DNA from: a virus
Virus genome (UHGV): UHGV-0087155
Direction: 5' to 3' (one strand)
Length of the DNA: 35,280 nucleotides
The notes beneath the pieces were generated by a model, which worked only from the letters and a program-made list of their open reading frames with translations, did no database searches and was not told the DNA's origin. The translations under genes were made by a program, and so were the position numbers. Shown here in pieces: positions 2,310 to 9,125 of this stretch (the first letter of the stretch is position 1; every line of letters starts with the position of its first letter).

Positions 2310-3248
2310 ATGAATATTTCCGATATTCGCGCAGGACTGCGCACGCTTGTAGAAAATGAAGAAACCACCTTTAAACAAATTGCTCTTGAGAGCGGGCTTT
2401 CTACCGGAACTATCAGTAGTTTTATCAATGATAAGTACAACGGGGATAACGAGCGTGTTTCACAAATGCTGCAACGCTGGCTGGAAAAATATCATGCAGT
2501 TGCAGAACTACCTGAACCGCCCCGCTTTGTGGAAACGCAGACGGTAAAACAAATCTGGACAAGTATGCGTTTTGCCAGCCTGACTGAAAGTATTGCTGTT
2601 GTATGTGGCAATCCTGGTGTGGGCAAAACCGAAGCGGCCCGTGAATATCGCCGCACCAATAACAATGTCTGGATGATCACCATTACGCCATCCTGTGCCA
2701 GCGTTCTGGAATGCCTGACTGAACTGGCGTTTGAGCTGGGAATGAATGACGCACCACGCCGTAAAGGGCCGCTCTCCCGCGCCCTGCGACGTCGCCTTGA
2801 AGGTACACAGGGGCTGGTTATCATCGACGAAGCTGATCATCTTGGTGCCGAAGTTCTGGAAGAACTCCGCCTGTTACAGGAATCAACCCGTATTGGCCTT
2901 GTGCTGATGGGAAATCACCGGGTTTATTCAAATATGACGGGGGGTAACAGAACGGTTGAATTTGCCCGTCTGTTTTCCCGTATTGCAAAGCGCACTGCAA
3001 TTAATAAAACCAAAAAAGCCGATGTAAAAGCTATTGCGGATGCCTGGCAGATTAACGGCGAAAAAGAACTGGAGTTATTACAGCAGATTGCGCAGAAACC
3101 AGGTGCGCTTCGCATTCTGAATCATTCACTTCGCCTTGCAGCCATGACGGCTCACGGTAAAGGTGAGCGTGTTAACGAAGATTATCTGCGTCAGGCTTTC
3201 CGTGAATTAGACCTGGACGTTGATATTTCAACGCTGCTGCGTAATTAA
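2310..3248 (+). CDS. B: Mu B transposition protein, ATP-dependent target DNA activator (312 aa)
   Basis: Length and sequence match MuB; Walker A motif GNPGVGKTE present; ATG at 2310 downstream of A. Confidence 0.95.
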   Translation: MNISDIRAGLRTLVENEETTFKQIALESGLSTGTISSFINDKYNGDNERVSQMLQRWLEKYHAVAELPEPPRFVETQTVKQIWTSMRFASLTESIAVVCGNPGVGKTEAAREYRRTNNNVWMITITPSCASVLECLTELAFELGMNDAPRRKGPLSRALRRRLEGTQGLVIIDEADHLGAEVLEELRLLQESTRIGLVLMGNHRVYSNMTGGNRTVEFARLFSRIAKRTAINKTKKADVKAIADAWQINGEKELELLQQIAQKPGALRILNHSLRLAAMTAHGKGERVNEDYLRQAFRELDLDVDISTLLRN

Positions 3249-3263
3249 GAAGGAGAAGAAATT

Positions 3264-3491
3264 ATGATGGCCCGAAATATAAAAATGGCAACGGATGCGC
3301 AGAACTGGTTACAGGCGCGCGGGAGTCATGTAAATGAATCATATCTCGGCGTGGCGCGTCCGATTCTTGAAATCACTTACCCACCGGTGGAACTGGTAAA
3401 AAACGCGGTCAGAATTATGGAGCATAAGTCCGGGGTGGCCCGTTCTGTATGGACGGCCCGTCTTAATGGTTGCCAGATTATCTGGAGATAA
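3264..3491 (+). CDS. kil: Kil-like host cell-division inhibitor (75 aa)
   Basis: First gene after B, as kil is in Mu; AGGAGA RBS at 3251-3256; size matches Mu Kil. Assignment by position and size. Confidence 0.7.
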
Positions 3492-3493
3492 CG

Positions 3494-3739
3494 ATGTGTA
3501 CTAAAGCTGAAAAATACTTTGAATGGGTTAAACGGGTACAGAATAACAATGTGGCTCTGACTGCATTTAATTGCCCCAAATGCAAAGAGCAAATTATGAC
3601 GCAATGCTCACCTGAAAATGAAGTATGGGACTCCTTCGCATGTTGTCCGTGGTGCAATGCGGTTTACTTTAAACAGGTACAAGGTGCGAAGGTAAAAGCC
3701 AGCGTAGTTATTATTCAGAATTCAATAAGCAGGCAATGA
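3494..3739 (+). CDS. early hypothetical protein, zinc-ribbon-like (81 aa)
   Basis: ATG 3494 with GGAGA at 3484-3488 (track ORF starts earlier at 3470); contains CPKC ... CCPWC cysteine pairs. Confidence 0.6.
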   Translation: MCTKAEKYFEWVKRVQNNNVALTAFNCPKCKEQIMTQCSPENEVWDSFACCPWCNAVYFKQVQGAKVKASVVIIQNSISRQ

Positions 3740-4011
3740 AAATGGCAAAAGTAATCTTTGAATTTAACAATACAGAAAATATTGAGTTTCAGGAAAATGG
3801 AGGTTTTGCCGTAAATATGAATGTGCGACTGGAAGAATCCTCACCTGAGGACCAGACCGGGCCACATGACGTAATGGCAGGCATCATCAAGAGCATGGCT
3901 CCTGAAATCATTAAAAAAGCGACCGAGGAGTTGTTGAAATCAGCCAGGGAACTTGGGCTGGAAGCTGAGGGGAAATTATTCAGCTATAACCCGAATACAG
4001 CCAGACATTAA
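3736..4011 (+). CDS. early hypothetical protein (91 aa), acidic
   Basis: ORF in the semi-essential early region; start overlaps the upstream stop; no recognisable motif. Confidence 0.55.
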   Translation: MKMAKVIFEFNNTENIEFQENGGFAVNMNVRLEESSPEDQTGPHDVMAGIIKSMAPEIIKKATEELLKSARELGLEAEGKLFSYNPNTARH

Positions 4012-4031
4012 TTCGCAAAGGAGCGCTGACA

Positions 4032-4451
4032 ATGAACGTCAAAATCCGAAATGAAATTCAGGCATTAATCCGAATTCAGGAACGCAATAACAACGGTGGT
4101 GAATTACGCGAGTTTATTTGCGCCAGGAAAGTTGATGATTGTGGTGAAAAGACGTACCTGATCGCTTTCGACCATTACAGCATCTGTGCGCGTTATTGCG
4201 GCGAAAGCATATCCCGCGCCATTGCATTTGGCGGTGCGTTCAACGTGGATTTATGGGAGTACGTCATGGACCGGGAATACATCTGCGCATCAGACCCTGA
4301 AGCCCGTGAAATGTGGCAGCGTATCTGGCGCGATTACCGGTTAATGGCAAAAGGCTGGGCGCGCTGCTGTTATTCCTCGCTTGCCCTGAAAGCGGTTCAG
4401 TTATCGCTGCGGCATATTCAGGCATCACTGCGCGAGCCTCTGCTGTACTGA
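4032..4451 (+). CDS. early hypothetical protein (139 aa), Cys/His/Trp-rich
   Basis: ATG 4032 preceded by AAAGGAGCG; compact ORF packing typical of the phage early operon. Confidence 0.6.
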   Translation: MNVKIRNEIQALIRIQERNNNGGELREFICARKVDDCGEKTYLIAFDHYSICARYCGESISRAIAFGGAFNVDLWEYVMDREYICASDPEAREMWQRIWRDYRLMAKGWARCCYSSLALKAVQLSLRHIQASLREPLLY

Positions 4452-4751
4452 ATGGTGACTGACATGAAGTGTAATCGTAAGCGCTGGTCACGCGAAGACC
4501 GGGAATTTATCGAAGCCAACGTCGGGAAAATGACCATTGAAGAAATGGCGGAAAAACTGAAAGTCGCCACAACCGCCCTCCGGGCACATGCCAGAAGGCA
4601 CGGAATATCATTGTGTGTATACCGAATCAGTGAACACGACAAATATTTATGTCGTGAACTTTATAAAGAAGGACTGGATATTCATGTCATTGCCCGAAAG
4701 ATGGAATTAAGCAATCGTGCTGTATCCAGCATTGTATACAGCGGATATTAA
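4452..4751 (+). CDS. early hypothetical protein (99 aa), possible HTH
   Basis: ATG 4452 (alternative ATG 4464); segment MTIEEMAEKLKVATTALRAHARRHGI looks helix-turn-helix-like (inference). Confidence 0.55.
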   Translation: MVTDMKCNRKRWSREDREFIEANVGKMTIEEMAEKLKVATTALRAHARRHGISLCVYRISEHDKYLCRELYKEGLDIHVIARKMELSNRAVSSIVYSGY

Positions 4752-4770
4752 TTAACAGGAGCTTTAATTT

Positions 4771-5295
4771 ATGGCTAAACCAGCAAAACGTATCAAAAGT
4801 GCCGCAGCGGCTTATGTGCCACAAAACCGCGATGCGGTGATTACTGATATTAAACGCATCGGGGATTTACAGCGCGAAGCATCACGTCTGGAAACGGAAA
4901 TGAATGATGCCATCGCGGAAATTACGGAGAAATTTGCGGCCCGGATTGCACCGATTAAAACCGATATTGAAACCCTTTCAAAAGGCGTTCAGGGATGGTG
5001 TGAAGCGAACCGCGACGAACTGACGAACGGCGGCAAAGTGAAAACGGCAAATCTTGTCACCGGTGATGTATCGTGGCGGGTCCGTCCACCATCAGTAAGT
5101 ATTCGTGGTATGGATGCAGTGATGGAAACGCTGGAGCGTCTTGGCCTGCAACGCTTTATTCGCACGAAGCAGGAAATCAACAAGGAAGCGATTTTACTGG
5201 AACCGAAAGCGGTCGCAGGTGTTGCCGGAATTACGGTTAAATCGGGAATTGAAGATTTTTCCATTATTCCATTTGAACAGGAAGCCGGTATTTAA
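4771..5295 (+). CDS. gam: Gam, Ku-like dsDNA-end-binding host-nuclease inhibitor (174 aa)
   Basis: Matches Mu Gam in length and sequence as I recall it (MAKPAKRIKSAAAAYVPQNRDAVITDIKRIGDLQRE...); AGGAG RBS at 4757-4761. Confidence 0.95.
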   Translation: MAKPAKRIKSAAAAYVPQNRDAVITDIKRIGDLQREASRLETEMNDAIAEITEKFAARIAPIKTDIETLSKGVQGWCEANRDELTNGGKVKTANLVTGDVSWRVRPPSVSIRGMDAVMETLERLGLQRFIRTKQEINKEAILLEPKAVAGVAGITVKSGIEDFSIIPFEQEAGI

Positions 5296-5337
5296 TACCA
5301 CCATTAATATTTAATTAATTCACATTCTTTTAATTAT

Positions 5338-5367
5338 GGCGCGATGCGTCAGGGGATTGCTCGCGCC
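5338..5367. promoter_or_regulatory. GC-rich stem-loop in the gam-downstream intergenic region
   Basis: GGCGCGA (5338-5344) pairs with TCGCGCC (5361-5367) around a 16-nt loop; no T-tract follows, so not a classical terminator. Confidence 0.3.
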
Positions 5368-5393
5368 TGAAACAGATTACTGAGGAATAAAAC

Positions 5394-5924
5394 ATGGTTG
5401 ATGCAAAAATTCTGAATGGTGTCAGCACATTATTACGGGCTTACGGACGCCTGACCTGCGGAGTTCTGGCTGAAAAAATGAAGATGCCTCCCTCATCAAT
5501 GGTGTATTTCCTGCGTGATGCGGTTGATGCCGGCGTTCTCACCGAATGCAACGGATTTTATGACGTTCCGCGCCCGCGTCCGACGCCGCCTGTAAGACGA
5601 AACGCAACTGAGCAGCCTGCTGTTGATGATGCGGTGTGGTGCAACTGGCGTCGCTCATTACCCTGGGTGGAAGGTAATACCATCCCCGCGCTGGCAAAAG
5701 AGTTTGCGACGGGCGTGCTGACCTGTGAATCCGTTCACATCGTTGCAGAACTGGACAACAGAATGTGCGAACAGGGAATGCCCCGTTTTGTGATGGCTTA
5801 TATCGATATCCGGCTGGGGCGTTTTATTTGCAGTTCAAGCGCCTGGAATATCACCGACCATGTACTGCGTTATCTCATTCTTGATTGTTCTCCGGCTCCC
5901 ACAGCGGTGCAGGAGGTGGCGTGA
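5394..5924 (+). CDS. early hypothetical protein (176 aa), N-terminal winged-helix-like
   Basis: ATG 5394 with GAGGA at 5382-5386; N-terminus ...LLRAYGRLTCGVLAEKMKMPPSSMVYFLRDAVDAGVL resembles a MarR-like wHTH (inference). Confidence 0.6.
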   Translation: MVDAKILNGVSTLLRAYGRLTCGVLAEKMKMPPSSMVYFLRDAVDAGVLTECNGFYDVPRPRPTPPVRRNATEQPAVDDAVWCNWRRSLPWVEGNTIPALAKEFATGVLTCESVHIVAELDNRMCEQGMPRFVMAYIDIRLGRFICSSSAWNITDHVLRYLILDCSPAPTAVQEVA

Positions 5925-6454
5925 TGTTTTTTAAAACGTCAAATCCCGCAGCACTGCTGGCATGGGACCAGTTTATGGCGGACTGCCTGAAACTACGCGA
6001 AGAAGCCCGCCATCTTGATAAGGTTCTGGGTTGTGGTTGCCGGTCAGTATTCAGCACAGGTATTGGTGGGCGTCATTTTCATGGCGTGAATTTTCCGGGG
6101 AATGAGCGACCTTTCTCGCCGGAGTTGTGGACTGTACAACGCTCCGCATCAGGTAACAGTTGCAGGCCAAGAACATCGCGCATTCCTGCACATCTGCGGG
6201 AGCAGTCAAAAGAGCTGGCGAAAATATGGCAGGAGAATATTCCGGTCACTTATGCCCGTACTGACGCTCTCTTACCCGCACTGGGACTGGATTTCAGCGC
6301 AACAATATTCGGCCCGCTCCGGTGGTTCCGTGTTGGTGATGTGATTTACGTCATGACAGGGATGACTCCCGCACAGGGCCGCATGACTGAAATCCTTTCT
6401 GACGAATTTATCCGGGCGCAAAAACAGGCGGAGGTAAACAATGGAAAACAATGA
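5924..6454 (+). CDS. early hypothetical protein (176 aa)
   Basis: ATG 5924 overlaps the upstream stop (TGATG) and follows AGGAGGTGG at 5911-5919; the track ORF begins earlier at 5885. Middle part is low-complexity (R/S/P-rich). Confidence 0.5.
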   Translation: MFFKTSNPAALLAWDQFMADCLKLREEARHLDKVLGCGCRSVFSTGIGGRHFHGVNFPGNERPFSPELWTVQRSASGNSCRPRTSRIPAHLREQSKELAKIWQENIPVTYARTDALLPALGLDFSATIFGPLRWFRVGDVIYVMTGMTPAQGRMTEILSDEFIRAQKQAEVNNGKQ

Positions 6455-6623
6455 AACATCGTATTCGTGGCTGGGGAAATTTACCACGGTGAAACAGGAA
6501 TGCCCGACCTGCGGTAATGAATCCCCTGAATATCTGAAAGAGTGCCCTCATTGTGGCGGGCAGAAATGCAACCACTGCGATATGGGCGACGACACGGCGT
6601 GCATGAATTGTGAAGGTGAGTGA
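6441..6623 (+). CDS. small Cys-rich protein with four CxxC pairs (60 aa)
   Basis: GGAGGT RBS at 6429-6434; motifs CPTC, CPHC, CNHC, CMNC. Confidence 0.6.
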   Translation: MENNETSYSWLGKFTTVKQECPTCGNESPEYLKECPHCGGQKCNHCDMGDDTACMNCEGE

Positions 6624-6624
6624 T

Positions 6625-6936
6625 ATGAATAATGGTGTATTTTCAAAATCAGAAGAGCTTGCCGCCCTGCTGATTGCCGGTGGTTTGCCGAAAAAAGAAG
6701 TGCATGACTTTGTGAATTTTGTATATGAGCCGTCTCATGAAAAAGCTATTGATGAAGTCATGGCGTACCGGTTTGGCATTATTGCTGAGTCACTGAGTCC
6801 TCACTGGATTATTGAAAATCTCCGCACTATTGCTGATGGTAACGATAAAGTGGCGGCTGTCGCCGCCCTTGATGTGCTGCAACGTATGAACCGGGAACTA
6901 TTCAATCCCGAGTTTCTTTTTAAGAAACGAGGTTAA
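6625..6936 (+). CDS. early hypothetical protein (103 aa)
   Basis: ATG 6625 after GAAGGTGAG (track ORF starts at GTG 6610); stop TAA at 6934-6936. Confidence 0.55.
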   Translation: MNNGVFSKSEELAALLIAGGLPKKEVHDFVNFVYEPSHEKAIDEVMAYRFGIIAESLSPHWIIENLRTIADGNDKVAAVAALDVLQRMNRELFNPEFLFKKRG

Positions 6937-7314
6937 CCACTGTTTGCCGACGTCTGTTACGAGCGTCATCGGGGCGTCGGCAAGGTCCTGTTTTATGCGC
7001 TCAAGAATGGGTTTTTGATGTAGTGCTTTCGCAAAATCATGACCATCTTGTGTAAGTCTGACACTGGTGCCTGAATATGAATATCCGAGGCTTGTTGGGG
7101 TGAGACCAATGCTTTTTGCGGTGCCTGTTTCCAGATATCTGTTGCTGATAAAACCATTTTCAACCAGCAACAGAAGATGGAAAACCAGCTTCTGATGGCT
7201 GTCGCTGTGCCGCTGAGAACGATCCCAGCCGACATCTTCCAGTCGAATGAATGCGGTGTCGGCCTCCAGAAAAACATCAAATATTCTGGCTATCTCGTCA
7301 TAATCAATTTTCAT
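6898..7314 (-). CDS. hypothetical protein (138 aa) encoded antisense to the early operon
   Basis: ATG at minus 7314 with AAGGA 7 nt upstream; it is the only sizeable ORF in 6937-7344; its 3' end overlaps the converging plus gene by 39 bp. N-terminus (MKIDYDEIARIFDVFLEAD...) is reminiscent of small DUF2513-type phage proteins; this is from memory, not verified. Confidence 0.5.
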   Translation of the reverse strand: MKIDYDEIARIFDVFLEADTAFIRLEDVGWDRSQRHSDSHQKLVFHLLLLVENGFISNRYLETGTAKSIGLTPTSLGYSYSGTSVRLTQDGHDFAKALHQKPILERIKQDLADAPMTLVTDVGKQWLTSFLKKKLGIE

Positions 7315-7344
7315 ATCTCATTCCTTAATATGAGAGGTGAGCAA

Positions 7345-7896
7345 ATGAATCGCACATCGCTTATTAAATTAATCCATGTCGCCCGTCGGGAGCTACAACT
7401 CGACGATGACACTTACCGCGCCTTTCTGATGCAGAAAACGGGCAAAACCAGTTGCCGCGAGCTGACGGTTACGCAACTGGAACAGACGCTCGATGCAATG
7501 AAAGAACGCGGCTTTAAGAAGCTGAATAAACATCCACGTCGCCGCTTTAAGGAACATGTCACGCCCCGCGAGAAGGTGTACAAAGTCTGGCAGCAGATGG
7601 CAGAAGACGGTTTTATTACCGATGGCGGTGATGTGGCGCTGGATAAATATGTTCAGCGCCTGACGGCGAAACGTAATGGCGGACAGGGTGTTTCCACACT
7701 GGCTTGGTGCCACGGAGAATCGTTGCAGGTTGTGCTTGAAACCCTGAAGCAGTGGCACATCCGCTGTATTCGTGAAGCTTTTTCCCGTCACGGGCTTCCG
7801 TTGCCGGTCAGTCCGTCCGGGCGTGAACTGCGCGGCTATGACGCCATGACGGCGGCTTATGTCCATGCCAGAAAGACGCGGAGGATGGCACAATGA
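7345..7896 (+). CDS. gemA: GemA, gene-expression modulator (183 aa)
   Basis: Matches Mu GemA from MNRTSLIKLIHVARRELQLDDDTYRAFL...; ATG 7345 with GAGAGGTGAG RBS. The track ORF extends upstream to 7177 but that extension has no RBS. Confidence 0.85.
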   Translation: MNRTSLIKLIHVARRELQLDDDTYRAFLMQKTGKTSCRELTVTQLEQTLDAMKERGFKKLNKHPRRRFKEHVTPREKVYKVWQQMAEDGFITDGGDVALDKYVQRLTAKRNGGQGVSTLAWCHGESLQVVLETLKQWHIRCIREAFSRHGLPLPVSPSGRELRGYDAMTAAYVHARKTRRMAQ

Positions 7897-8282
7897 CGGA
7901 AGATTTATTTGGTGATTTGCAGGATGACACCATCCTGGCACATCTTGACAATCCCGCAGAGGATACGTCACGCTTTCCGGCACTGCTGGCGGAGCTGAAC
8001 GATTTACTACGCGGGGAATTGTCCCGGCTGGGTGTTGATCCTGCCCATTCACTGGAGATTGTTGTGGCTATCTGTAAGCATCTGGGCGGCGGTCAGGTCT
8101 ACATTCCGCGCGGTCAGGTTCTGGACTCGCTGATTCGGGATTTGCGTATCTGGAATGATTTTAACGGTCGCAACGTCAGCGAACTGACCACCCGTTATGG
8201 TGTCACTTTCAATACGGTTTACAAGGCCATTCGCCGGATGCGACGGCTGAAATACCGCCAGTACCAGCCTTCACTTCTGTAA
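7893..8282 (+). CDS. mor: Mor, middle operon regulator (129 aa)
   Basis: Matches Mu Mor in length and sequence; start overlaps the gemA stop; last gene before the early terminator. Confidence 0.9.
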   Translation: MTEDLFGDLQDDTILAHLDNPAEDTSRFPALLAELNDLLRGELSRLGVDPAHSLEIVVAICKHLGGGQVYIPRGQVLDSLIRDLRIWNDFNGRNVSELTTRYGVTFNTVYKAIRRMRRLKYRQYQPSLL

Positions 8283-8287
8283 ACAGT

Positions 8288-8312
8288 AAAGCCGGTTAAT
8301 CCGGCTTTTTTT
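8288..8312 (+). terminator. rho-independent terminator ending the early operon
   Basis: Stem AGCCGG (8290-8295), loop TTAAT, CCGGCT (8301-8306), followed by six T (8307-8312), just after the mor stop. Confidence 0.7.
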
Positions 8313-8359
8313 ACGTCCTCAATATCCTGTGATGAATAACCGTACCGGGGGAACTCATC

Positions 8360-8590
8360 ATGGGTAAAGGCTGGAATGCATCCTTTCATCTTGGCAGACG
8401 TGAGCGGCTGCGTCAGGAGGTTTTGCACCGTGTCGCCGGTGGGCCACGGCCTGCGCCCCGCGACTATACCGGTCATGATGGCACCCACGGCAGTTATTAC
8501 ATGAAAGGCTGGCAGTCAGTTGATATGCCGGAAATTCTTCATCATTGCCAACGTTATAAGGAAAAATATTGTGTACAGAAAATTCAGTGA
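8360..8590 (+). CDS. candidate small ORF (76 aa) in the mor-C interval
   Basis: ATG 8360 with GGGGGA upstream; the protein is Arg/His-rich and not obviously protein-like; may be non-coding leader instead. Confidence 0.3.
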   Translation: MGKGWNASFHLGRRERLRQEVLHRVAGGPRPAPRDYTGHDGTHGSYYMKGWQSVDMPEILHHCQRYKEKYCVQKIQ

Positions 8591-8702: not shown

Positions 8703-9125
8703 ATGCAGCATGATTTATTTGAACACGATCCGGCAATTCGCCAGTTAATCGGACATATTGATAACATCCCGGCCCCGGAACTGGAATCACGCTGGCCCCG
8801 TTCGGTGGTTGATCTGATTGATGTTCTGGAAAACGAACTGAAACGCCAGAACGTCAGCAATCCCCGTGAACTTGCCCGTAAACAGGCCGTTGCCCTGTCC
8901 TGTTTTCTGGGTGGACGGCAGTTTTACATCCCCTGCGGCGATACGATCCTGACCGCGTTACGCGACGATTTGCTTTACTGCCAGTTTAATGGTCGTAACA
9001 TGGAAGAACTGCGTCGCCAGTATCGCCTGTCCCAGCCGCAGATCTACCAGATTATTGCCCGCCAGAGAAAGCTGCATACACGACGTCATCAGCCTGATCT
9101 GTTCTCACCTGAAAGCCAGAAATAA
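8703..9125 (+). CDS. C: C, late-gene transcriptional activator (140 aa)
   Basis: Matches Mu C protein (MQHDLFEHDPAIRQLIGHIDNIPAPELESRW...) and is a paralog of Mor; RBS AAGGGGAAAAT before ATG 8703. The Mor-dependent middle promoter must lie in 8313-8702; not pinpointed. Confidence 0.95.
   Translation: MQHDLFEHDPAIRQLIGHIDNIPAPELESRWPRSVVDLIDVLENELKRQNVSNPRELARKQAVALSCFLGGRQFYIPCGDTILTALRDDLLYCQFNGRNMEELRRQYRLSQPQIYQIIARQRKLHTRRHQPDLFSPESQK

Follow-up and report, generated by a model that had tools for sequence, protein, structure and literature searches.

The interval between positions 3494 and 6936 of the window (the whole 35,280-nucleotide stretch of viral genome UHGV-0087155 that was analysed) holds nine plus-strand genes: gp6, gp7, gp8, gp9, gam, gp11, gp12, gp13 and gp14. 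The eight starts named in the initial annotation open real plus-strand ORFs, as does gam at 4771, but that account missed a tenth gene, which lies on the minus strand and overlaps the end of the interval. The features are as follows.

3494-3739, plus strand: gp6 (old name E5), 81 aa
3742-4011, plus strand: gp7 (E6 slot), 89 aa (91 aa from the alternative start at 3736)
4032-4451, plus strand: gp8 (E7), 139 aa
4452-4751, plus strand: gp9 (E8), 99 aa
4771-5295, plus strand: gam (gp10), 174 aa
5296-5393, no strand: gam-gp11 intergenic gap, 98 nt
5394-5924, plus strand: gp11, 176 aa
5924-6454, plus strand: gp12 (E13), 176 aa
6441-6623, plus strand: gp13 (E14), 60 aa
6625-6936, plus strand: 'gp14', 103 aa
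6898-7314, minus strand: DUF2513 domain gene, 138 aa, adjoining the block and not among the nine
8288-8308, plus strand: intrinsic terminator just 3' of mor, from a consensus scan

The DNA of the block is 92-97% identical to that of Mu, D108 and SfMu, and these phages share its position between B/kil and gemA/mor, its strand, the order of its genes and of these flanking ones, and the terminator after mor. [quoted passage not shown]

Thus, the feature itself is already known. Mu-type blocks are on record as genes E5-E15 or gp6-gp14 (GenBank M64097, NC_000929, NC_013594, NC_027382), and by similarity all nine genes are catalogued in Mu, D108 or SfMu. Public databases already contain every protein of the block under the label 'hypothetical' or 'Mu prophage protein', RefSeq and UniProt using the names 'hypothetical protein' or 'Uncharacterized protein gp11/gp12', and no paper assigning a function to gp6-gp14 was found in the searchable full-text literature. 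The earlier impression that these proteins mostly lack an assigned function is therefore accurate, and the ORFs are not all characterised in previous work.

Coding capacity and transcription

Between 3494 and 6936, 96% of the plus strand and 31% of the minus strand lie in ORFs of 60 aa or more, whereas the plus-strand value expected from shuffled sequence (n=500) is 20% on average and 60% at most. Start codons in the block mostly overlap or abut the preceding stop codon, and the spacing of successive genes is 2, -4, 20, 0, 19, 98, -1, -14 and 1 nt. The tight packing described previously is thus confirmed, all gaps but the single one of 98 nt lying between -14 and +20 nt. Shine-Dalgarno-like GGAG/AGGA motifs precede gp6, gp8, gam, gp11, gp12, gp13 and gp14, and a weak one precedes gp7. 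Translation within the block is probably largely coupled.

Pairwise comparison with Mu, D108, SfMu and the Yersinia phages yields dN/dS values of about 0.05-0.5 for each of the nine genes, and therefore these are genuine coding genes, all of which are under purifying selection as judged from these alignments. Values well under 1 persist even at 52-54% amino-acid identity for gp12 and gp14. The opposing idea, that the ORFs are chance or decaying frames without function, could draw on the loss of gp12 from about one third of the related loci reaching its slot, on its frameshift in SfMu, and on the fact that gp6 is not called by PGAP in the closest E. coli prophage. However, the ORF cover, the selection analysis, the confident AF2 fold of gp12 and the membership of every gene in a PHROG family (E about 1e-30 or lower) contradict it, and we attach only a minute probability to it. 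The reading frames are also conserved across Mu-like prophages.

No sigma-70-like promoter was found on the plus strand inside the block, and a terminator consisting of an 8-bp stem followed by a T-run is predicted at 8288-8308, both results coming from a crude consensus-match scan. A rho-independent terminator is annotated at the equivalent position in the D108 record, and the predicted one would end the early transcript on which the whole block is read. In Mu, the Pe early transcript spans the semi-essential genes, and there is low-level expression from Pe/Pe* in lysogens (PMC3820752).

Core genes and swappable cassettes

Across 46 related loci, kil, gp8, gp9 and gam form a near-constant core, with gp11 slightly less constant. 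Among these loci are 39 from IMG/VR (L008-L046) that were retrieved through gp9, and the constancy of gp9 in them is therefore by construction. The swappable cassettes are gp6, gp7, the gam-gp11 gap, gp12/gp13 and the slot of gp14 and the minus-strand gene, with breakpoints at gene boundaries. Wherever a homologue exists in Mu, D108 or SfMu, the gp8, gp9, gam, gp11, gp12 and gp13 proteins are 85-100% identical to it. The one-to-one match to Mu that had been implied fails for two of the nine genes, gp7 and gp14, which are different alleles or cassettes. Overall, the allele comparisons indicate that the block is a new mosaic of Mu-, D108- and SfMu-type alleles.

The gp8 gene is a lineage-restricted orphan that matches PHROG 3690 (3e-96) and has no match in Pfam, NCBIfam or PDB. 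It is found in 38 of the 39 loci covering its position, with dN/dS values of 0.05-0.21. Relatives of gp8 form just 24 clusters, each with an identity of 71% or more and each from E. coli/Salmonella; a lone 44% match is a frameshifted translation. The start codon of gp9 directly abuts the gp8 stop codon, and its basic product contains two helix-turn-helix (HTH)-like segments. It matches PHROG 323, 'transcriptional regulator, D5-like' (6e-29), gives several sub-threshold HTH matches in Pfam/NCBIfam (residues 22-49 and 69-95), and is 85-100% identical across six reference loci with dN/dS values of 0-0.27. These features suggest that gp9 is probably a DNA-binding protein.

The gam product is 100% identical in amino-acid sequence to Mu Gam and matches Pfam PF07352 Phage_Mu_Gam above the cutoff (4e-42) as well as PHROG 491. 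The gap that follows contains an AT-rich stretch and a GC-rich hairpin (5338-5368) whose fold z-score of -1.8 is not significant. In SfMu and YpM_3 an additional DUF5420 gene, absent from the window, is inserted into this gap, and the SfMu alignment breaks at 5375/5379. In the gp11 protein, some 60 conserved N-terminal residues form one domain, which a variable linker rich in Pro and Arg joins to the C-terminal Gp11_C domain (Pfam PF25754, 7e-40). The N-terminal domain is probably a winged helix, although this call is tentative because the structure model is of low confidence (pLDDT 61).

One possibility is that gp8, gp9, gp11 and perhaps gp12/gp13 are phage-internal regulators that act on Mu's own DNA and correspond to the 'arm' (amplified replication) and 'cim' (control of immunity) functions, which have been mapped to the region and not to single genes (PMC4553209). 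Such proteins would tune transposition, repressor action or early-to-middle timing and would not attack host proteins. The HTH or winged-helix-like domains of gp9 and gp11, the slow evolution of gp8, gp9 and gp11 and their presence in nearly all related loci, and the regulators gemA and mor as neighbours are consistent with this proposal. However, anti-repressors and host-directed factors also commonly have HTH domains, and the HTH-type proteins of the block could equally be phage regulators or host-directed factors. Moreover, gp7, gp8, gp12 and gp14 carry no recognisable motif and no DNA-binding signature, the winged helix of gp11 comes from the low-confidence model, and the placement of arm and cim, in the available part of the source, goes back to old genetics. 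This proposal is a possible one that we hold tentatively.

Among the swappable genes, gp6 encodes a basic protein that has 7 Cys and, in the form CPKC...CPWC, motifs resembling those of zinc ribbons. The window carries the allele of SfMu and YpM_5 (93% aa), whose identity to gp6 of Mu/D108 is just 70%. The protein matches PHROG 3786 (4e-38), Pfam zinc-finger families at sub-threshold scores only, and nothing in PDB. Its dN/dS is 0.15-0.35, and the exact sequence occurs on 123 public contigs under the name 'hypothetical protein'. The gp13 protein is acidic, with four CxxC motifs, and its gene shares its first 14 nt with the end of gp12, in the +1 frame. Both gp6 and gp13 look like zinc ribbons, and gp13 is likely a double one by its motif pattern. 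It belongs to PHROG 5584 (3e-44) and also matches positions 175-231 of the 231 in PHROG 6418. In prophages that lack gp12, the gp13 domain forms the C-terminal part of a protein of 231 aa whose N-domain is unrelated (L018:5409-6167). Membership of gp13 in the Lar family was rejected (14.9 bits versus a cutoff of 39.6). These matches make the statement that only gam is recognisable slightly too strong, given PHROG 323 for gp9, Gp11_C for gp11 and the CxxC motifs of gp6 and gp13, although none of them provides a function.

The gp7 slot is the most variable of the block, with at least three allelic classes that are 23-43% identical. The window carries the D108 allele (98%), which encodes an acidic protein that shares 41% identity with the YpM_5 allele and about 23% with Mu gp7, to which BLAST gives no match. 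It matches PHROG 2230 (3e-40), whereas Mu gp7 belongs to PHROG 10252 and scores just 0.009 against PHROG 2230. Translation most likely starts at ATG 3742, not 3736, because all homologues open with MAKVIFEF and the recorded form is 89 aa. An exhaustive HMMER search of 1.84 billion proteins recovered only 11 cluster representatives, and dN/dS is 0.25-0.5, the upper value being the highest in the block. A weak Pfam match to RraB lies under the cutoff and other alleles did not reproduce it.

The gp12 product is an alpha/beta protein for which fold searches with the predicted structure found no solved relative, and its loss from many loci indicates that some block genes, gp12 for example, are apparently dispensable. 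The last plus-strand gene, 'gp14', has homologues in SfMu ORF14 and YpM_5 00021 (87-88%; dN/dS 0.25-0.3). Homology to Mu/D108 gp14 was ruled out by tblastn, which gave no match in Mu or D108, in agreement with the report that SfMu ORF14 lacks a homologue in either phage (PMC4406740). It belongs to PHROG 1988, whereas Mu gp14 belongs to PHROG 6075.

Perhaps gp6, gp7, gp12/gp13 and gp14 form a counter-defence set that inhibits host immune systems or nucleases. Such a set would complement Gam (RecBCD) and Mom (restriction), its diversity being kept by an arms race. The small size and early expression of the proteins, the replacement of their slots at gene boundaries, and the allelic classes, dN/dS and scarce relatives of gp7 fit this idea. 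So does a narrow host range: gp7, gp8 and gp12 have few, fast-diverging relatives, confined to E. coli, Salmonella, Shigella and Yersinia. However, no sequence or fold likeness to a known anti-defence protein was seen, the sole hints (RraB and Lar) fall under their cutoffs and were not reproduced, and cassette turnover is general in phage accessory regions whatever their function. We consider this set unlikely.

Proposed role of the block

The explanation that we favour, with a probability of roughly 0.6 for the whole, is an SEE block that encodes Gam and eight accessory small proteins and is built in two layers, core and cassettes. According to the literature, the genes are read in a single long early transcript from Pe once the repressor is lifted. 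Gam is an established Ku-like DNA-end binder, which guards linear DNA against host exonuclease (annotation; PMC3820752) and in this way shields Mu DNA. The other eight products are small, one- or two-domain proteins with no enzymatic signatures; most likely, they would act early in the lytic cycle by binding host proteins or DNA stoichiometrically. Such binding may adapt the cell to replicative transposition and dampen host functions, and these proteins would be accessory, not essential. The core, to a lesser degree including gp11, probably serves the phage's own DNA transactions, and the cassettes probably carry host-specific functions.

The initial annotation had suggested inhibitors of host defence or host machinery. 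No similarity of any block protein to a known host-takeover, defence or anti-defence family was found with PADLOC, Pfam, NCBIfam, PDB sequence or fold searches, and this suggestion is a reasonable prior, not a finding.

Clusters of small, non-essential early ORFs are also known from lambdoid phages, where the available text of two sources describes them as retained in evolution and as modulating phage development and host physiology (PMC7093339, PMC10789677). The Mu block resembles them, as far as those texts go, in being a cluster of small, poorly characterised, non-essential early ORFs. However, the two are unrelated in sequence and differ in their setting: recombination/excision genes for the lambdoid clusters, and for the Mu block a place after the transposition genes, in one transcript from Pe. 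Pseudomonas Mu-like (D3112/B3-type) phages have a Mu-like architecture in which, according to the available part of the source, conserved core genes alternate with variable accessory slots, as they do here (PMC4378225). They differ in that no homology was detected, relatives of gp8, gp11 and gp12 being found in Enterobacterales only. Small proteins directed at the host are encoded in the early operons of these Pseudomonas phages; examples are Tip, which inhibits twitching motility, and Aqs1, an inhibitor of quorum sensing and of the pilus.

The convergent minus-strand gene

The DUF2513 gene is convergent with gp14, with a 39-nt overlap, and fills the slot that in Mu is occupied by gp14 and the minus-strand gp15. 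Mu, D108, SfMu and the Yersinia phages all lack this gene. Its name comes from PGAP (WP_000687312.1); it matches PHROG 585 (3e-31), and its score of 15.9 bits against Pfam DUF2513 is below the cutoff.

A further possibility is that some of the genes are lysogen-benefit genes (morons) expressed from the prophage and serving the host. Expression would come from basal Pe/Pe* activity or, for the DUF2513 gene, from its own promoter; the benefit might consist in the exclusion of superinfecting phages or in a modulation of physiology, as has been reported for gem. Low-level early transcription occurs in lysogens, and a subset of semi-essential genes may benefit the host (PMC3820752). The DUF2513 gene is unreadable from Pe, and this swapped-in cassette is under purifying selection (dN/dS 0.14 against copies 61-65% identical). 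There is also a precedent in TerI of Listeria phi10403S, a defence gene that lies among prophage early genes on the minus strand and that the DUF2513 gene resembles in lying opposite the early operon and overlapping a plus-strand early gene (10.1101/2025.02.27.640495). This comparison concerns the DUF2513 gene only, not the nine-gene block, and the gene, known here from sequence alone, has no sequence similarity to TerI. Moreover, in other phages the DUF2513 homologues run in the same direction as the genes around them, not antisense, and lack a gp14-like or conserved partner. No clear promoter was seen upstream of it, the nine plus-strand genes lack promoters of their own in the crude scan, and no PADLOC defence model rose above noise for any block gene. 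Thus, a benefit to the lysogen seems improbable. The start of the DUF2513 gene lies 30 nt from that of gemA, and its cassette boundary falls exactly at 7345.

Position, coding capacity and transcription of the block

A megablast search with window 3000-7500 returned Mu-family phages exclusively, including Yersinia phage vB_YpM_5/6 (89% coverage, 95.8% identity), D108 (84% coverage, 95.3% identity), and SfMu and Mu (79% coverage, 95.6% identity). Mu, D108 and SfMu are 92-97% identical to the window at the DNA level in the block region. The best match overall is a prophage of E. coli 22KM0354 (L007 among the related loci compared), which is 99.8% identical across 6400-7500. The initial annotation placed the block in the semi-essential early region of Mu, and this identification is correct given the Mu-family matches and the gene order ner-A-B-kil-block-gemA-mor, wherein the block lies between A/B and kil on one side and gemA/mor on the other. 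Because Ner is encoded at 41-268, the window opens inside the early operon, without the repressor and the left end.

Features of the early region (window coordinates)
41-268: ner; the window begins within this gene
265-2271: A, transposition gene
2310-3248: B, transposition gene
3264-3491: kil, 100% identity to Mu Kil
3494-3739, plus strand: gp6, ORF
3736/3742-4011, plus strand: gp7, ORF with alternative starts
4032-4451, plus strand: gp8, ORF
4452-4751, plus strand: gp9, ORF
4771-5295, plus strand: gam, ORF
5296-5393: gam-gp11 gap of 98 nt, the sole sizeable intergenic gap in the block
5394-5924, plus strand: gp11, ORF
5924-6454, plus strand: gp12, ORF
6441-6623, plus strand: gp13, ORF
6625-6936, plus strand: gp14, ORF
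6898-7314, minus strand: DUF2513 gene, 138 aa, antisense to the early operon
7345-7896: gemA, downstream of the block
7893-8282: mor, downstream of the block
8703-9125: C, late activator, a second Mor-family gene beyond the early terminator

Every start named in the initial annotation opens a plus-strand ORF, and with gam these make nine genes. The tight packing and the ribosome-binding sites that it described are likewise found, with successive spacings of 2, -4, 20, 0, 19, 98, -1, -14 and 1 nt and with GGAG/AGGA-type motifs located 5' of most starts. In 3494-6936, 96% of the plus strand and 31% of the minus strand fall within ORFs of 60 aa or longer; shuffled sequences (n=500) reach 20% on average and 60% at most. 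Against the homologues from Mu, D108, SfMu and the Yersinia phages, dN/dS values by the Nei-Gojobori method are 0.05-0.5 in every gene. The reading frames are kept across relatives, and those of gp11, gp12 and gp14 remain open down to 52-58% amino-acid identity. The nine block genes are real and are under purifying selection.

The best-supported reading, in our view, makes the block an accessory set of early genes in a Mu-type prophage, transcribed together from Pe and coupled in translation. The gene spacing is compatible with an operon, and a consensus scan detected no sigma-70-like promoter on the plus strand of 3494-6936. The same scan predicts a strong intrinsic terminator at 8288-8308, immediately 3' of mor, where a rho-independent terminator is annotated in D108. 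Previous work established the Pe transcript and the long-standing designation of the region as 'semi-essential'; transcription itself is known from the Mu literature only, and low-level Pe/Pe* transcription is reported in lysogens (PMC3820752).

The gam-gp11 gap contains an AT-rich stretch and a GC hairpin at 5338-5368, and it was considered as a possible structured RNA or terminator. This candidate was rejected, since the hairpin is not followed by a U-tract and the fold z-score of -1.8 is not significant. An Rfam scan of 3000-8500 gave two chance-level matches, neither of them credible. The position of the gap is also the site of an extra DUF5420 gene in SfMu and Yersinia phage vB_YpM_3.

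Near-constant core and exchangeable cassettes

All window proteins, along with the alternative alleles from Mu, SfMu and YpM_5, were compared by tblastn with 46 related loci, comprising six loci from reference phage records, of which two are Mu, one locus from an E. coli genome, and 39 IMG/VR loci. Across this set, kil, gp8, gp9 and gam form a near-constant core, only a few loci are without gp11, and gemA and mor are constant downstream of the block. The constancy of gp9 is by construction, because the IMG/VR loci were fetched via this gene.

Between these genes lie slots whose occupants are exchanged. The gp6 slot carries one of two alleles with 70% mutual identity or is empty, and a DUF5420 gene is optional in the gam-gp11 gap. 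Of the related loci extending into the gp12 slot, about one third have no gp12 homologue, and the SfMu homologue (locus L005, 4957-5482) is frameshift-split and unannotated. Both observations hint indirectly that the region may be dispensable for plaque formation while improving growth, the property behind the name 'semi-essential'. The slot 5' of gemA is occupied by Mu gp14 with the minus-strand Mu gp15, by a gene of the SfMu ORF14 type alone, by an ORF14-type gene with the minus-strand DUF2513 gene, or by neither. The gp7 slot (3742-4011 in the window; also loci L001, L003 and L004) holds at least three allelic classes with 23-43% mutual identity, which have in common only their first eight residues, MAKVIFEF, and a C-terminal His; the genes that flank this slot are more than 90% identical. 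DNA breakpoints coincide with gene boundaries, at 3775-4017 for gp7 and, on the gemA side, from 6634 or 6876 to exactly 7345, which is the gemA start codon.

Seven genes are orthologous to their Mu counterparts: by full-length tblastn against Mu, gp6 is 70% identical and gp8, gp9, gam, gp11, gp12 and gp13 are 95-100% identical. No match to Mu gp7 or Mu gp14 was obtained for the corresponding window slots; window gp7 shares 98% identity with that of D108, and window gp14 shares 87% with SfMu ORF14. Sequence comparison thereby indicates that these two slots are kept relative to Mu and that their occupants are different. With an SfMu-type gp6, a D108-type gp7, an SfMu ORF14-type 'gp14' and the DUF2513 cassette, the block is a new mosaic made of known parts. 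The block genes are conserved, operon-like and mosaic.

Relatives of gp7 are few. An exhaustive HMMER search recovered 11 proteins among 1.84 billion cluster representatives, and all 11 begin with MAKVIFEF, so the start of gp7 is assigned to 3742. A possible relationship to RraB (regulator of RNase E activity, PF06877) was rejected, given a score of 16.9 bits versus a gathering cutoff of 23.3 and no match with the Mu or YpM_5 gp7 alleles or among the 11 relatives. The window form of gp6 (81 aa) is present on 123 public contigs. In the L007 prophage, PGAP left the gp6 position (1598-1843) unannotated, and tblastn reveals there a full-length Mu-type gp6 that is 100% identical to Mu gp6 and 69% identical to the window allele.

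Predicted products and candidate roles

The block was already known, since every ORF is in RefSeq and UniProt, and no new element is added here. RefSeq lists the Mu and D108 homologues as gp6-gp14, with the old names E5-E15, and all are called 'hypothetical protein' save Gam and gp9, the latter bearing the PHROG-derived name 'transcriptional regulator, D5-like'. The exact sequences of the eight non-Gam ORFs and of the minus-strand ORF are already public, with contig counts from the tens to above 1000, under names such as 'hypothetical protein', 'Mu prophage protein' and 'Uncharacterized protein gp11/gp12'. Full-text literature searches returned no functional assignment for any non-Gam gene of the block, and the functions of the semi-essential genes have been described as 'largely unknown' (PMC3820752). 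Annotations and literature thus agree with the initial view that these genes are uncharacterised.

Gam is 100% identical to Mu Gam and matches PF07352, the family of Ku-like end-binding proteins, over residues 21-166 (4e-42; 144 bits versus a gathering cutoff of 28.3), and its function is established elsewhere. Among the older genetic names, sot is the same gene as gam, and lig was later renamed gem. The old phenotypes arm and cim were mapped to the semi-essential early region of Mu and, to our knowledge, were never assigned to ORFs.

The protein gp9 matches PHROG 323, 'transcriptional regulator, D5-like' (6e-29), and contains two HTH-like segments, for which all Pfam and NCBIfam HTH matches are below cutoff. 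No PDB relative of gp9 was found by sequence search. We regard gp9 as probably DNA-binding. The Gp11_C domain (PF25754, Phage Mu Gp11 family) is present in gp11, and its N-terminal domain is tentatively modelled as a winged-helix fold. The old Mu left-end record M64097 (L002, 2877-3402) divides gp11 into E10, E11 and E12; in the window it is a single intact frame of 176 aa, in accord with the RefSeq merger. There are only 24 clusters of gp8, all at least 71% identical except for one 44% match. This match, P0093, was rejected as a remote homologue because the alignment reveals a translation disrupted by a frameshift, from an assembly of poor quality.

Both gp6 and gp13 are small, Cys-rich proteins predicted to be of the zinc-ribbon type. 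The gp13 gene (6441-6623), whose product has a likely double zinc ribbon, shares 14 nt with gp12. In gp12-less Mu-like prophages, the gp13 ribbon makes up the last 56 residues of a 231-aa protein (PHROG 6418; L018:5409-6167), whose N-domain is unrelated to gp12. For this reason a gp12-gp13 frameshift fusion was rejected, and the 231-aa proteins are attributed to domain shuffling rather than recoding. This fusion in related prophages suggests a functional linkage of gp12 and gp13, and hints that the ribbon may act together with whichever protein is encoded immediately upstream. Assignment of gp13 to the Lar restriction alleviation family (TIGR03655) was also rejected, as the match scores 14.9 bits where 39.6 are required and spans 21 residues of a generic CxxC motif. 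For gp12 a fold is confidently predicted, and this model is unmatched in the PDB. The sole match for gp14 is PHROG 1988.

The initial annotation noted that inhibitors of host defence or host machinery are usually found among the small early proteins of phages. Among the block proteins, PADLOC defence-system profiles gave no match beyond two noise-level ones for gp9 (E 0.004 and 0.014). PDB searches with the sequences of gp6-gp9, gp11-gp14 and the DUF2513 protein, and with a profile of the DUF2513 protein, returned nothing below E = 0.04, and they revealed no likeness of these nine proteins to characterised anti-defence proteins (Ocr, Ard, anti-CRISPRs, Tad, Gad and the like). Fold searches with gp11 and gp12 found no characterised inhibitor among similar structures. 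A counter-defence role therefore receives no direct support from these searches. As a prior expectation it is nevertheless reasonable where the variable cassettes are concerned, and for gp7 especially.

The eight uncharacterised products may act as small proteins that bind DNA or host proteins stoichiometrically. We find it more likely that the constant core would serve Mu's own DNA transactions and that the variable cassettes would bear host-specific functions. Our analysis adds a prioritisation on this basis: gp8, gp9 and gp11, being near-constant, are candidates for DNA-transaction roles, and gp6, gp7, gp12/gp13 and gp14, being swappable, are candidates for host-specific or counter-defence roles. 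It seems unlikely, although worth considering, that at least one cassette encodes a new, host-specific protein inhibiting either an immune system of E. coli/Salmonella or an essential host machine, in which case gp12 would represent a new inhibitor fold and the antisense DUF2513 protein would be an exclusion factor expressed from the prophage. The best candidates for such an inhibitor are the hyper-variable, acidic gp7, followed by gp6, gp14 or the gp12 and gp13 zinc-ribbon pair, and gp12 is a good structural target.

Mu is one of the founding models of transposition, and yet in its early operon some 3.5 kb remains a list of 'hypothetical proteins'. What these genes do is an old question, testable since the sequence was published. 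If some of their products turned out to be inhibitors of host defence or of the replication/repair machinery, a gap of more than 40 years would be closed, and new small protein inhibitors might result.

The antisense DUF2513 gene

The DUF2513 gene shares 39 nt with the end of gp14, and its start is 30 nt from that of gemA. It stands in place of the Mu cassette of gp14 and minus-strand gp15, with the breakpoint at exactly 7345. An identical protein is named 'DUF2513 domain-containing protein' by RefSeq/PGAP. The local match to Pfam DUF2513 (PF10711) is 15.9 bits, below the cutoff of 29.6, and the match to PHROG 585 is 3e-31. There is a good AAGGA ribosome-binding site, and a clear promoter was looked for and not seen.

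One possibility was that gp14 and the antisense DUF2513 gene constitute a conserved TerI-type module of two genes. However, remote homologues (32-38% identity) are co-directional with their neighbours, unlike the antisense Listeria TerI system, and they have no gp14-like neighbour and no conserved partner outside Mu-like prophages. The module was therefore rejected. The two genes are found together in Mu-like prophages only, and we attribute their co-occurrence to linkage within these prophages. Among 5426 complete E. coli genomes, only 5 cover 80% or more of the full segment 6400-7500, which contains the DUF2513 gene. Comparison with copies that are 61-65% identical gives a dN/dS of 0.14, and the DUF2513 gene is thus under purifying selection.
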